Origin: a virus
Taxonomy: Duplodnaviria > Heunggongvirae > Uroviricota > Caudoviricetes
Virus record (IMG/VR): IMGVR_UViG_3300045988_127337
Coordinates: 1 to 31,589 of that record
Length of the DNA: 31,589 nt
Reading direction: 5' to 3' (one strand)
This document shows positions 1,104 to 3,747 of this stretch, in pieces. The notes under the pieces were generated by a model. That model did no database searches and was not told the origin of the DNA. It saw only the letters and a program-made list of their open reading frames with translations. The position numbers and the translations under genes are program-made. Numbering within the stretch: the stretch's first letter is position 1; each line of letters starts with the position of its first letter.

Positions 1104-1466
1104 TTAACGACCTGCTGCGCGGAGTTTTCCGTCAGGTTCACCGGCAAGAGTCAGTAACTGTCCCTGGTCTTCCTGCAGAATAGTCAGGCGACCACCGCGA
1201 TTGACATACATCGGCGTTTCGGTGGTGTCTTCTTCGGAAATTTTCCCGCGGTTAGTCGGGCGAACATATGAGAGTTTGTGTTTGATTTTCACTCGGTTCT
1301 CATCAAACGGTTCGATTTCCAGGTTGAGCGAGACCTTACCTTTGGTTTTCGTGTTCATCACACCGGAAGCGACTTCACTGAGAACTGCGCCGATTTTGGT
1401 TTCAAATACGCCGCCGTCCAGCTCCCCGATAAATGCCTGCACATCAGTACTGCGTTCGCTAGCCAT
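1104..1466 (-). CDS. Hypothetical prophage protein, 120 aa (YfdP-like)
   Basis: ATG at 1466 is preceded by GAGGAG (revcomp of 1472..1477). The long upstream in-frame extension to 1784 is GC-rich and not protein-like. Sits directly upstream of the YfdQ-like gene on the same strand. Confidence 0.65.
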   Translation of the reverse strand: MASERSTDVQAFIGELDGGVFETKIGAVLSEVASGVMNTKTKGKVSLNLEIEPFDENRVKIKHKLSYVRPTNRGKISEEDTTETPMYVNRGGRLTILQEDQGQLLTLAGEPDGKLRAAGR

Positions 1467-1934
1467 TTTGCTGCTCCTCATCATATCGACCCTGCAAGGT
1501 CGGTTAGTTTCTCCACAAAACAGAGAAGAACACCTGCGGTGACTGCCGCCCGGATGGATTGGGTTATGAGCCCGTCGTCCGGTGATGCTCTTCTCTGTTT
1601 TGTAAAAAGGACGGTACCAGCCGGAAGCAAGGGTACAAGCTGGTACCGCCAAGACTACACACAGCATAAAGTTGTGGTGCCGGGTGCCTCCCGGTGCCTG
1701 GCGAAGGTTGCACACCAGGCGGGTGGGTATCCACAGAAGGTCGACTGTCAGCCTCAACCTTAACCCGCGTGCGCTGAGCCGCATTCACCACAACGCTAAG
1801 GATTCTCTCTGGTTGAAAATACTTAGCTGTTATGTGCCTGCTTTTAGCCACATCAGGCGAGGTGGACCTAGTTATTCCCCAACAACAAGGATTCGGTTAA
1901 TCTGGTTATCCCCAACAACGCAAAAGGAAAAGAA
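1467..1934. other. GC-rich structured non-coding block (candidate ncRNA or regulatory DNA)
   Basis: No protein-like ORF. Perfect 15-bp inverted repeat arms at 1515..1529 and 1589..1603; 9-bp inverted repeat GGTACCAGC/GCTGGTACC at 1613..1621 and 1639..1647; direct repeats GTTAT(T)CCCCAACAAC at 1871..1886 and 1905..1919. Confidence 0.4.
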
Positions 1935-2369
1935 ATGTCCGGTAATATCTATACGCTGTACAAATCCCACTGTGAAAATGTTGGAAAGTATCGGGGCATT
2001 GAAATCAGTGGGGTAGTGTCATCAGTCGAAATAAGCAAAGTTGAATCAAGGGCAACATTACTTACTCTTTTGGACCTTGTCTTACATGAGCACCGGAAGA
2101 AATTCGGCACTCCCTATAATCAGTTGAATGGGAAAAAGGCTCTGGTTCACCTTATTCTGATGAAGCATCACTGGATGCCAAAACAGATTAATGAGATGAA
2201 ATTTGATGAACTTCTTCTTTCAATTCAGGATGAACTCACACTTGATAAAATAAGCGTAACCGCCCAGAAATTTTTAGATTATCGAGACTGGAGATCACAA
2301 ATTCATCACTTTGATGATTTTGACGAAAATGAATGGGATCCTAATTTGTCTGCACAATATCTAAAGTAA
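1935..2369 (+). CDS. Hypothetical protein, 144 aa; AT-rich orphan (moron-like) gene
   Basis: ATG at 1935 with AAGGA Shine-Dalgarno 6 nt upstream. AT-rich by eye compared with neighbours. Oriented opposite to the early-left operon. No recognisable motif. Confidence 0.6.
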   Translation: MSGNIYTLYKSHCENVGKYRGIEISGVVSSVEISKVESRATLLTLLDLVLHEHRKKFGTPYNQLNGKKALVHLILMKHHWMPKQINEMKFDELLLSIQDELTLDKISVTAQKFLDYRDWRSQIHHFDDFDENEWDPNLSAQYLK

Positions 2370-2547
2370 CATCCTGTGATAAAACCGTGATTTCCTGATC
2401 CAGTTTTTTTAAGGAGTCTATTGTTTCCTGTCGATAAGACAGCACTTCACGAAGCTGGTTTATAGCTGCCAGCTTCTTTGTCATCCACTCATAAATTTCC
2501 TCATCTGTGTAGCCAGGCGCGACGATTTTGGGTTCTGTTTTGTGCAT
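2341..2547 (-). CDS. Hypothetical small protein, 68 aa, first gene after the PL-like promoter
   Basis: ATG at 2547 with GAGGAG 8 nt upstream; the listed ORF start at 2562 is a TTG. Its 3' end overlaps the 1935..2369 gene convergently by 29 bp. C-terminal half looks coiled-coil. Confidence 0.55.
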   Translation of the reverse strand: MHKTEPKIVAPGYTDEEIYEWMTKKLAAINQLREVLSYRQETIDSLKKLDQEITVLSQDVTLDIVQTN

Positions 2548-2591
2548 TTCACATCTCCTCAAGTTATCAGTTACTTGTTGATGGGGACCAG

Positions 2592-2624
2592 ATTGTTAAA
2601 GAGCTAAGCGTCCTGTAGGGCGCT
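2592..2624 (-). promoter_or_regulatory. Nut-like antitermination element: hairpin followed by rrn-type boxA
   Basis: Minus-strand RNA reads hairpin (2624..2607) then GCUCUUUAACAAU (2604..2592), a 13-nt match to the E. coli rrn boxA consensus as recalled. Lies in the leader between the PL-like promoter and the 68-aa gene. Confidence 0.5.
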
Positions 2625-2630
2625 TTTTTG
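2607..2630 (+). terminator. Intrinsic terminator (plus strand)
   Basis: Stem agcgtcc / gggcgct with loop tgta, followed by a T6 run at 2624..2629. Confidence 0.6.
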
Positions 2631-2714
2631 TTGCTAACGAATCATCCTGGACTTCATATGCCCCAGGCGGCTACTTCGTGGGCGTCCTGCCTGTTTGTTG
2701 TTTCTCTTGGGTAC

Positions 2715-2742
2715 ATTATGTATCTCATAGGTACATTGTCAA
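2715..2742 (-). promoter_or_regulatory. PL-like early-left promoter with embedded operator
   Basis: Minus strand -35 TTGACA (2742..2737), 16-bp spacer, -10 CATAAT (2720..2715). Spacer contains palindrome ATGTAC-N7-aTACAT (2718..2736), matching the OR operator architecture. Confidence 0.6.
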
Positions 2743-2746
2743 GTAT

Positions 2747-2767
2747 AAAAAAACCTGCCGAAGCAGG
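2747..2767 (-). terminator. Intrinsic terminator downstream of the repressor gene
   Basis: Minus-strand hairpin cctgc-ttcg-gcagg followed by a U7 run, 15 bp past the repressor stop codon. Confidence 0.7.
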
Positions 2768-2781
2768 TTCATAAACATTGA

Positions 2782-3456
2782 TTAGGCTTTGATTTTGTAT
2801 CTTCTTGGTTTTCCTGAGAAAATCACAGTTCCAATTATAGAGCAATTACCGTTGATCTTAATGTAAGGCTCAGGCCAGTTTGGGTTTAACGCTTTGAGAT
2901 AACGCTGTGTCCCATCTTCTATCAACCTTTTGAAGGTGGTTTCACCTGTATCGTGCATCAATGCAATAACGTCGTCACCGTGGCAGGCAGGTACTTCAGG
3001 ATCGACAAAAATCATGTCTCCCGGGCGGTACTCGTCAATCATTGAATCACCTATCACCCGCAAGATATAAGTCATTTCCCCACAGGGTACAGGGCAGGGA
3101 TACGTTTCTGCTGTGCTCAAATCAACCTCAGAATATCCAACTTCTTTCCATGCTCCGGCCTGTACCCATGATATGACAGGGACTAATGTGATTTGTTTAT
3201 TAGTGATTGAAACATCAGGTTTTTTTGTGATGTTCGTTGTCTGGTGTTCTTGATCGAGCCATCCGACAGGCAGGTCGAAACATTTTTCGATGTGTCGTGC
3301 CATGCTGTCACCGATATTTTTAGTAGCACCATCTCCCATAAACCTGCTGGTCTGGGTTGGCTCGCGATCAATCATAGTGGCAAAGGAAGAATTCCCGCCA
3401 ACACCATCTCTCAGTTTTCTGGCGTTAGACCGCCGGATGTCATGGATTGTTTTCAT
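2782..3456 (-). CDS. CI-type prophage repressor, N-terminal HTH plus C-terminal S24 (LexA-like) peptidase domain
   Basis: 224 aa. C-terminal region aligns by eye with P22 C2 (LNPNWPEPYIKINGNCSIIGTVI vs LNPQYPMIEINGNCKIIGVVV). Contains GDSM catalytic serine motif and an Ala-Gly cleavage site (VQAGAW). No Shine-Dalgarno, consistent with a leaderless PRM-type transcript. Confidence 0.85.
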   Translation of the reverse strand: MKTIHDIRRSNARKLRDGVGGNSSFATMIDREPTQTSRFMGDGATKNIGDSMARHIEKCFDLPVGWLDQEHQTTNITKKPDVSITNKQITLVPVISWVQAGAWKEVGYSEVDLSTAETYPCPVPCGEMTYILRVIGDSMIDEYRPGDMIFVDPEVPACHGDDVIALMHDTGETTFKRLIEDGTQRYLKALNPNWPEPYIKINGNCSIIGTVIFSGKPRRYKIKA

Positions 3457-3546
3457 AACGAAATTAAAACCCTTGTACCGTTAAGGTACAAGTATCTTGA
3501 AGGTTCATTTCAATCATGTAATATGTACACCGGAGGTACATATTGT
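3457..3546. promoter_or_regulatory. Divergent immunity-region promoter and operator segment (OR, PR, PRM)
   Basis: Palindromes CTTGTACCGTTAAGGTACAAG (3472..3492) and ATGTACACCGGAGGTACAT (3523..3541), both with a GTAC-N7-GTAC core. Plus-strand PR: -35 TTGAAG (3497..3502), 16-bp spacer, -10 TAATAT (3519..3524). Confidence 0.65.
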
Positions 3547-3747
3547 ATGAAAGCGTATTGGGACTCTTTAACCAAAGAACAGCAGGGCGAGTTGGCCGGA
3601 AAAGTTGGCTCAACACCTGGCTACTTACGGCTGGTTTTCAATGGCTATAAAAAAGCCAGTTTTGTGCTGGCTAAAAAACTTGAGCAATGCACGTCAGGTG
3701 CAATTACGAAATCTGACTTAAGACCGGATATCTATCCGAAAGATTAG
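3547..3747 (+). CDS. Cro-like HTH regulator, 66 aa
   Basis: ATG at 3547 with GGAGG upstream; divergent from the repressor. The YdaS-family assignment is from recalled sequence character only. An alternative ATG at 3523 lies inside the operator. Confidence 0.6.
   Translation: MKAYWDSLTKEQQGELAGKVGSTPGYLRLVFNGYKKASFVLAKKLEQCTSGAITKSDLRPDIYPKD

Follow-up and report, generated by a model that had tools for sequence, protein, structure and literature searches.

The early-left region of the phage

The DNA examined here, referred to below as the window, is a single stretch of 31,589 nucleotides of phage origin, and the features of interest lie in its early-left region, between the gene of a repressor and those genes which a leftward transcript would serve. 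Between positions 1800 and 3800 the window is 98.9% identical to Shigella phage SfIV, and sequence comparison places it among the lambdoid phages of the SfIV/SfV type, which do without the lambda N protein. In the order in which a polymerase moving leftwards from the repressor gene would meet them, the features are as follows.

2782 to 3456, minus strand: gene of the cI-type repressor, 224 aa, LexA/S24 family (from the list of open reading frames)
2744 to 2770, minus strand: intrinsic terminator of cI, a stem (2770-2751) with a T-run (terminator scan)
2715 to 2742, minus strand: the PL promoter, with -35 TTGACA (2742-2737), a 16-nt spacer and -10 CATAAT (2720-2715)
2718 to 2736, no strand assigned: the OL operator ATGTAC-N7-aTACAT, inside the PL spacer (pattern search)
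2634 to 2701, minus strand: a 68-nt structured leader RNA (covariance model R1, 86.9 bits)
2606 to 2631, plus strand: intrinsic terminator of the plus-strand cassette gene, a stem (2606-2625) with a T-run (terminator scan)
2592 to 2604, minus strand: boxA GCUCUUUAACAAU, of the rrn type and fitting the Nus-factor consensus GYTCTTTAANA
2574 to 2594, minus strand: 5' arm of a long-range helix, AAUCUGGUCCCCAUCAACAAG, which begins in the last two bases of boxA (inverted repeats I1 and I2)
2341 to 2547, minus strand: gene of a 68-aa acidic protein, phrog_1744 (PHROGs, E 6e-35), PL-sense and inside the bracket formed by the arms
1935 to 2369, plus strand: 144-aa accessory gene, phrog_5286, antisense to PL, in a slot that elsewhere holds many unrelated genes
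1876 to 1918, minus strand: 3' arm region of the long-range helix, with alternative partner copies at 1899-1918 and 1876-1889 (inverted and direct repeats)
1601 to 1824, minus strand: an STnc100-like structured RNA (Rfam RF02076, 43.4 bits against a gathering score of 47, E 9e-8)

The same type of repressor is found in E. coli prophage e14 (YmfK) and in SfV and SfIV (cI), where it is annotated as cI or repressor. Directly past the terminator of cI stands the near-consensus minus-strand promoter that the original prediction had placed there, agreeing with the consensus hexamers at 11 of 12 positions and scoring as the top promoter-like site between 1500 and 4500 in a promoter scan; from its position, transcription would start at about 2708. 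The palindrome in its spacer had been likened to the OR operators, and a search for ATGTAC-N7-GTACAT bears this out, returning three sites in the window against 0.76 expected, of which one, with a single mismatch, is that in the PL spacer (2718-2736), while the two OR sites between cI and cro have none (3523-3541) and two (3473-3491). The locus thus has what is typical of lambdoid PL/OL: a sigma-70 promoter beside a repressor gene and, overlapping the promoter, an operator that recurs at OR. Its hexamers are identical in SfV, PhiR29 and e14, the last of which differs by one spacer base, and in E. coli K-12 the e14 prophage carries the same repressor type, PL hexamers and operator between ymfK and ymfJ. 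Late in the SOS response the e14 genes ymfJ, intE and ymfM are jointly induced (PMC11002266), which lends experimental support to a promoter nearly identical to this one; de-repression on induction is accordingly an experimental finding for the e14 promoter only (PMC11002266), and for PL of the window is predicted from its sequence. Promoter and operator are in substance the already known immunity region of SfV, SfIV and e14. Comparison with related phages further indicates that the immunity module, PL included, stops at about 2700, and Kati and vB_EcoS-569R4 have everything left of about 2700 in common with the window but carry another repressor.

The question then is how a transcript initiated at PL would reach the distal genes of the operon. 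The STnc100-like RNA, which is the sole real Rfam match near the PL leader and whose region is conserved in SfV, PhiR29 and e14, ends in an intrinsic terminator in the PL sense (about 1601-1650), and PL transcription must pass this terminator to reach the early-left genes xis and int whether or not boxA is present. Antitermination of the rrn type works poorly on intrinsic terminators. An N or Gp17-like protein was sought in both early regions by a scan for arginine-rich motifs, and neither contains an arginine-rich open reading frame, as had been anticipated for N. The Gp17 system of mEp021 was set aside as a different, N-like mechanism.

A structured leader RNA directly after PL

The first transcribed element is an RNA of 68 nt, which comprises in order an outer helix (P1), a hairpin GGC-AGGAC-GCC and a single strand CACGAAGUAGC, both of them invariant, and a hairpin (P2) with the loop GGCRUAYGAA, followed by GAUGA. 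The covariance model R1 finds a single copy in the window; it lies on the PL side, the PR side having none. When 40 diverse copies are aligned, 93.9% of the cells that should pair do so and double changes occur in 10 of the 11 pairs, which belong to two helices; none of 500 shuffles did as well, and registers slid out of place gave at most 42% pairing. RNAalifold arrives at the same fold together with the invariant hairpin, and long unpaired stretches of the RNA are invariant as well. This RNA lies within the interval 2592-2742 to which the original prediction referred, and had been overlooked there.

Right behind PL the leader is conserved among phages of Escherichia, Shigella, Salmonella, Klebsiella, Citrobacter, Pantoea, Yersinia and Pectobacterium. 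When viral contigs were scanned for its exact core, more than 120 loci were obtained among the matches listed, and together with other loci these amount to at least 120 distinct variants. Leader, hairpin and boxA occur together in 1015 of 5426 complete E. coli genomes. A search of Rfam with the leader (2634-2701, minus strand) gave no match at gathering or permissive thresholds, with E values up to 10, and full-text searches of an incomplete literature collection found no paper that describes it. On sequence evidence it may represent a new class of RNA. Since it is common to SfV, e14 and the phages with boxA, all of which face an STnc100-like terminator, we infer that this leader is a better candidate than boxA for a general antitermination or processivity element.

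A hairpin that terminates the opposite strand

Between leader and boxA stands a hairpin of eight pairs (2606-2625) which, with the T-run that follows, is scored as a terminator of the plus strand. The version formed by the PL transcript is weaker, having a conserved C.A mismatch where the plus strand has a U.G pair. When 61 variants of this hairpin were compared, the plus-strand fold was the better one in 59 (mean -11.75 against -7.44 kcal/mol), and the plus-strand run of 4-8 T after the hairpin was always present. The suggestion that the hairpin doubles as a terminator for the convergent gene is in this way substantiated, and the comparison argues that it is the intrinsic terminator of the 144-aa gene, selected as such on the plus strand. 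At some loci the hairpin is missing, or is of another kind that lacks the T-run, and boxA is kept regardless.

These observations bear on the earlier description of the hairpin-then-boxA order as an rrn-type arrangement. As the variants (59 of 61) point to selection for termination on the other strand, and as some loci have another hairpin or none, we reject the hairpin as an equivalent of boxB, and since it belongs to the neighbouring gene, its position before boxA is largely a by-product. The likeness to rrn leaders is nevertheless apt, on account not of the hairpin but of what comes after boxA, namely the 5' strand of a covarying helix.

Sequence and conservation of boxA

The predicted 13-nt match to the rrn boxA, after the hairpin and about 100 nt into the leader, was recovered exactly: GCTCTTTAACAA occupies 2593-2604 of the minus strand, the 13-mer extending to 2592, and in sense orientation boxA begins at about +105 relative to the inferred start site. 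The functional boxA consensus of gamma-proteobacteria, GYTCTTTAANA, was derived experimentally (PMC5725501), and NusB:NusE binds to rrn-type boxA about ten times more tightly than to that of lambda (PMC2800207). In the window GCTCTTTAACA at 2594-2604 (minus strand) is the sole match to this consensus, against 0.06 expected. Since 5 of 100 shuffled windows contain at least one match, this single occurrence is by itself only modestly significant, and it is comparative data that make it significant.

For this comparison loci were gathered with a seed taken from the distal (3') arm only and not from boxA, which provided 62 unique contexts. In 60 of these boxA stands just before the 5' arm, as GCTCTTTAA followed by C, A or T and then AAT, two of the 60 showing one change of a core base. 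The forms recovered are GCTCTTTAACAAT in 42 contexts, GCTCTTTAAAAAT in about 13 and GCTCTTTAATAAT in 2, with single instances of ..AGC.. or ..GAC.., such that the core GCTCTTTAA is almost invariant in the 60 contexts and the variation is concentrated at position 10 (C, A or T), precisely the N of GYTCTTTAANA. Everything around boxA varies: the loop, stem and type of the hairpin, the spacer base between hairpin and boxA, the arms and the upstream leader. At every related locus examined the orientation is PL-sense, and the promoters of PL type that precede boxA go with various repressors and leaders. Circularity affects neither the arm-seeded nor the leader-seeded scan; the boxA-seeded scan of the collection, being circular with regard to conservation and estimated to include some 100-200 chance matches to the 15-mer, served solely to discover contexts. 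Several hundred related loci were compared in all, many of them closely related, so that the counts do not represent independent events. By its sequence boxA is genuine, and it is under purifying selection in the PL-sense orientation; the pattern is that expected from selection for NusB/NusE binding in PL-sense RNA, and would be hard to explain by hitch-hiking.

The distribution of boxA qualifies its role. SfV has PL and the first 70 or so leader nucleotides in common with the window, diverges at about 2637 and lacks both hairpin and boxA; e14 likewise has PL and leader and no boxA; in PhiR29_1 leader, hairpin and boxA are the same up to CAATCTGG, after which a different gene begins. From these mosaic joints, and that of Kati and 569R4, it follows that hairpin and boxA belong to the boundary of an accessory-gene slot and neither to the immunity module nor to one particular cassette. 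Moreover, because SfV and e14 possess PL, leader and an antisense gene in the absence of boxA, the latter is dispensable for the operon as such and was rejected as a general early antitermination device. It is an accessory linked to the cassette, which would probably provide Rho resistance and RNA looping. A nutR counterpart in the early-right leader, to which the original prediction had also drawn attention, was not found, the PR operon containing no second boxA, no boxA of nutR type and no second copy of the leader; a boxA-like word with two mismatches inside cro is coding sequence. Full-text searches of the same incomplete literature collection found no paper describing the boxA module.

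A long-range helix around an antisense cassette

Throughout the family the 5' arm (typically AAUCUGGAUAUCC...) follows boxA without a spacer, and the 3' arm lies 340-900 nt further downstream. In the window the helix has about 20 bp, the 3' arm is some 660 nt downstream of the 5' arm, and the arms 2574-2594 and 1899-1918 are predicted to form a duplex of -29.9 kcal/mol; as in PhiR29_1, the inverted repeats flank the cassette. Different loci have arm pairs which differ and yet are complementary, such as GTAACCCTC/GAGGGTTAC, CAGTTTGGTGA/TCACCAAATTG and GGATGACT/AGTCATCC. When 54 distinct pairs were aligned in a fixed register of 18 positions, 89.4% of the cells paired, with double changes in 11; none of 500 shuffles reached this figure and slid registers gave no more than 50%. 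In a strand-symmetric alignment G.U mismatches number 92 on the PL transcript and 27 on the other strand, and because of this bias we conclude that the helix is selected in the PL-sense RNA.

What the arms enclose is an antisense reading frame of about 130-170 aa, the families concerned being many and unrelated. At 41 of 42 unique boxA-positive loci the longest open reading frame in the next 700 nt is antisense, as against 49 sense and 43 antisense at boxA-negative loci, by a crude classification on the longest frame that is clean for the former loci and noisy for the latter. Besides SfV and e14, some other leader-bearing loci have long antisense frames without boxA, and we accordingly make no claim that boxA accompanies all antisense cassettes. 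Taken together, boxA and the helix have the look of an optional extra that goes with one type of cassette slot.

In the window the first gene downstream of boxA, with its start 45 nt away, is indeed the non-basic 68-aa protein of the original prediction, and can now be described as an acidic member of the conserved phage family phrog_1744; in the related locus L104 its homolog lies upstream of boxA. The 144-aa, 68-aa and 242-aa cassette proteins match nothing in Pfam or PADLOC, and in PHROGs they match families of unassigned function only. From 2341 to 1470, that is for about 870 nt, there is no sense reading frame, and within the antisense stretch a region in which C predominates over G (about 2048-1970) could, from its composition, act as a loading site for Rho.

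Relation to rrn leaders, nut and put sites

Of the established systems the closest in layout is the rrn leader, with which the window shares an identical 13-nt boxA, a hairpin before it and, after it, one strand (5') of a long-range helix, the other strand being located past a long untranslated segment. The phage arm even begins with UCUG, as does boxC (UCUGUGUGGG). In enterobacterial rrn operons boxC, located 18-19 nt after boxA, forms the 5' side of the 16S leader-trailer helix, and it has been proposed that the Nus complex retains it at the channel by which RNA leaves the polymerase until the trailer appears (PMC10250234). The two differ in that the phage arm follows boxA at 0 nt instead of 18-19 nt, that its segment of 340-900 nt is antisense to an accessory gene whereas rrn encloses rRNA, that the phage hairpin is the terminator of the other strand, leaving no upstream boxB, and that the phage promoter is controlled by a repressor; the helix strand after boxA is thus common to both, and a matured structural RNA is not. 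In layout, boxA and helix are a compact copy of boxA and the leader-trailer helix of rrn, and dependence on Nus factors is predicted.

With nutL of lambda, P22 and phage 21 the window has in common the position in the PL leader and a boxA that would be expected to recruit NusB and NusE. In contrast to these, it has no boxB after boxA, the hairpin lying on its 5' side, no arginine-rich N and neither a nutR nor a second boxA; its boxA is of the rrn type and not of the weaker lambda type, and is absent from close relatives with the same PL. The leader RNA, for its part, resembles the put sites of HK022 and HK639 in being of similar size, promoter-proximal and on the PL side in phages without N, and HK639 put also occurs once per genome on the PL side only. 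However, likeness in sequence is limited to short words (CGAAC.GGC, GGAUGA), and put folds into two tandem stem-loops, whereas the leader has a closing helix with two internal hairpins. Comparison with HK022 putL and putR and HK639 putL by BLAST, by eye and by covariance model brought to light no relationship, R1 finding nothing in HK022 or HK639, so that position alone fits.

Consensus boxA sequences outside rrn are familiar from the work of the Wade laboratory on CRISPR arrays, where boxA precedes a long untranslated transcript, and on suhB, where it stands just before the start codon. The setting in the window is similar, but here boxA is part of a phage operon and is coupled to a long-range helix and to antisense accessory genes.

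A proposed function for boxA and the helix, and its alternatives

The reading that we favour, and to which we would assign a somewhat better than even chance, is that boxA loads the Nus complex onto a PL transcript formed without N, conferring resistance to Rho and assisting the pairing of the arms around the cassette. On loss of the repressor, RNA polymerase would start at about 2708 and transcribe first the leader RNA (2701-2634), most likely a general processivity element akin to put, then the weak reverse side of the terminator of the neighbouring gene and thereafter boxA (2604-2593) and the 5' arm of the helix, which would enclose the 68-aa and the antisense 144-aa genes. At boxA, NusB-NusE(S10) would be loaded together with NusA, NusG and SuhB, as happens at rrn leaders and CRISPR arrays, and the complex so formed would render PL transcription resistant to Rho across the approximately 870 nt that lack a sense reading frame. 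The same complex would keep the 5' arm close to where RNA leaves the polymerase, ready to pair with the 3' arm once that has emerged; the cassette RNA would thereby be looped out and perhaps be marked for RNase III.

A different division of labour, in which the leader and not boxA makes PL transcription processive, in the manner of HK022 put, and boxA is optional for one type of cassette slot, is compatible with this model, and we regard it as a serious, if tentative, possibility. It draws on the observation that phages with unrelated repressors retain the leader 5-20 nt past the inferred start site, on its strong covariation and long invariant unpaired stretches, and on its occurrence once per genome, as with HK639 put. 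SfV and e14 carry the leader without boxA and still face the STnc100-like terminator, e14 intE being induced together with ymfJ, and of 5426 complete E. coli genomes about one third (1813) have the leader, K-12 with its e14 included. Against this must be set the lack of sequence or structural likeness to put RNAs, and the existence of Ayreon and Kp4882-1, which have similar operons without the leader. The RNA might moreover serve otherwise than as an antiterminator, for instance in processing, as the operator of a protein or as a binding site for CsrA (there are two GGA motifs about 40 nt apart).

A boxA need not act positively. Nus factors bound there are also able to block translation and bring about termination by Rho, suhB being an example, and their effect on Rho depends on context (PMC5725501). 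With boxA ending 45 nt before the start codon of the 68-aa gene, and hence inside the range of suhB-type repression, a negative effect of this sort may occur in the window phage: the Nus complex, as at suhB or in lambda N translation, would block translation of the 68-aa gene, Rho would terminate and early-left expression would be damped. As a general account of boxA this seems to us unlikely, since in most members of the family boxA is followed by no sense reading frame but by a helix arm and an antisense gene, and since the 68-aa homolog of L104 lies upstream of boxA; a conserved attenuator at the head of the xis/int operon would also seem costly.

Selection might instead act on the plus strand, the conserved block being the 3' end of the cassette mRNA, as context for the terminator or as a 3'UTR-derived RNA antisense to boxA, with the PL-sense boxA its functionless mirror image. 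The hairpin is clearly selected on the plus strand, the block AUUGUUAAAGAGC with the terminator is shaped like a 3' end of the Hfq type, and lysogens, in which PL is off, presumably express the cassette. We nonetheless think this improbable: the one variable base is exactly the N of the Nus consensus, which an RNA antisense to boxA would be expected to keep; boxA and arm persist at loci where the hairpin is of the T-run-less kind or missing; the adjoining helix has its G.U bias in the PL sense; and T7 has the same 17-mer in a sense-only context. Least probable by our reckoning, in spite of the many unrelated genes between the same flanks and the mosaic joints close by, is that the inverted repeats are DNA sites for exchange or inversion of cassettes, by a recombinase or short homology, with boxA kept as a boundary sequence, because arms that are completely different between loci yet complementary argue against a site for a sequence-specific protein, the G.U bias is strand-specific, the cassette frame is antisense at 41 of 42 boxA-positive loci, with no sign of inversion, and boxA lies outside the repeat apart from 2 nt.

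Wider occurrence and implications

To our knowledge, little has been described of how early transcription passes terminators and untranslated stretches in lambdoid phages without N or put, and we know of no regulation by Nus factors and boxA outside N-dependent phage systems other than that established for rRNA, suhB and CRISPR arrays. Phages of the N-less kind are very common as prophages of E. coli, Shigella, Salmonella, Klebsiella, Yersinia and Pectobacterium. It is conceivable, although we would put this no higher than a cautious proposal, that they possess two hitherto undescribed RNA devices in their early-left operons: a class of leader that replaces N or put as processive antiterminator, and a miniature boxA-helix of rrn type that recruits Nus factors for passage past backward accessory genes and loops out the antisense RNA, a logic repeated in the early regions of T7-like phages. 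The second device would amount to Nus/boxA antitermination and the leader-trailer helix moved into a phage early operon. If so, Nus/boxA regulation would be extended to a large set of phage operons, the 'delivery' model of leader-trailer pairing in rrn would gain a small and genetically tractable test case, and it could be explained how backward accessory genes, possibly defence genes, are tolerated in an essential early operon without polar effects.

In T7 the same 17-mer, GCTCTTTAACAATCTGG, is found 63 nt past promoter A3, with gene 0.3 about 100 nt further on, and contigs of T7-like phages contain repeated units consisting of a promoter, boxA, a 5' arm, reading frames and a 3' arm. Here too the element follows a strong promoter of host type by some 60-100 nt, with a double-stranded RNA element coming next in the relatives and, in T7 itself, the RNase III site R0.3 after boxA; the difference is that T7 is virulent and the bracketed genes are sense-oriented. 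From these sequences the association of boxA with helix pairing looks like a recurring phage design.

In e14 the repressor type, PL hexamers, operator, leader RNA (73 bits with model R1) and STnc100-like region are those of the window; its slot, by contrast, holds ymfJ in the sense and ymfI in the antisense orientation, without boxA or a bracketing helix. Through e14 the leader RNA is thus present in K-12 itself.

Distribution and boundaries of the leader RNA

The 68-nt structured RNA in the leader of the early-left promoter PL is not confined to the window, being found also in the e14 prophage of laboratory E. coli K-12 (L342 2440-2573), where PL hexamers, operator and leader RNA occur as in the window, between ymfK and ymfJ; the leader RNA is therefore directly testable in K-12. 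A boxA is absent from this e14 region. Within the PL leader of the window there are two mosaic joints. The first, at ~2700, falls between PL and the leader RNA and represents an immunity-module swap, as seen in phages Kati and 569R4, while the second, at ~2637 and directly after the leader RNA, is the boundary of the accessory-gene cassette slot and is seen in SfV.

The leader RNA has a diverged relative, containing ...GGCAGTGGTCAGGGATTAAGTAGCCAGCCCGAGGCGTAAGAA..., in L022 (~2450-2560) and L029 (~3320-3430). Since our covariance model of the leader RNA, R1, detects this relative in neither locus, the family probably extends beyond the members sampled in this analysis. In Gifsy/SPN3UB-like and Klebsiella phages (L013, L014, L007 and many other loci), the leader RNA is followed at a distance of about 20-70 nt by a second conserved block, ..TAACGCGCAGCAGGT..AAACGTTCCGCTGGCCGGCG..; Kp4882-1 carries part of this block without the 68-nt leader RNA.

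Cassette slot and downstream region

The slot is filled by small genes from many unrelated families without a known function (phrog_5286, phrog_1244 and others), all antisense to PL, and a simple promoter scan found no plus-strand sigma-70-like promoter for them. Examples are:

Window 1935-2369, plus strand, slot gene
L006 2424-3152, plus strand, slot gene

At the distal cassette end, TCCCCAACAACAAG (plus strand) occurs in two tandem copies, at window 1876-1889 and 1905-1918, a duplication shared with PhiR29_1 and Kp4882-1 and spaced by ~30 nt in the window as against 33 nt in PhiR29_1. The 5' arm of the long-range helix thereby has a choice of two pairing partners, 1876-1889 or 1905-1918.

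Beyond the slot, and before the first conserved early-left gene is reached, lies a structured RNA akin to the Salmonella sRNA STnc100, overlapped by an open reading frame:

Window 1601-1824, minus strand, STnc100-like structured RNA
Window 1104-1784, minus strand, 226-aa ORF (SfIV_34 in the SfIV annotation)

The match to Rfam RF02076 (43.4 bits, E 9e-8) falls slightly short of the gathering score of 47. A strong intrinsic terminator in the PL sense closes the 3' end of this RNA, which is kept in SfV, PhiR29_1, 569R4 and e14 among the related loci compared. The true start of the conserved protein within SfIV_34 is probably near 1469 (MMRSSKMASERS...), as annotated in SfV orf32 and 569R4 (YfdP-like).

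Other boxA and boxA-like sequences

As a candidate nutR, ACTCTTTAACCA (window 3563-3574, plus strand) was rejected: it lies within the cro coding sequence, differs from boxA by two mismatches and departs from the consensus at positions 1 and 11.

In phage T7 (L343 813-829), GCTCTTTAACAATCTGG stands between promoter A3, which it follows by 63 nt, and gene 0.3, which it precedes by about 100 nt. Repeated units are seen in T7-like contigs, in which a host-type promoter is followed by boxA, a 5' arm, small ORFs in the sense orientation and a nearly perfect 3' arm:

L100 830-2000, region with boxA units
L017 6318-7620, region with boxA units
L071 191-520, region with boxA units

The 3' arm of each such unit overlaps the next promoter.
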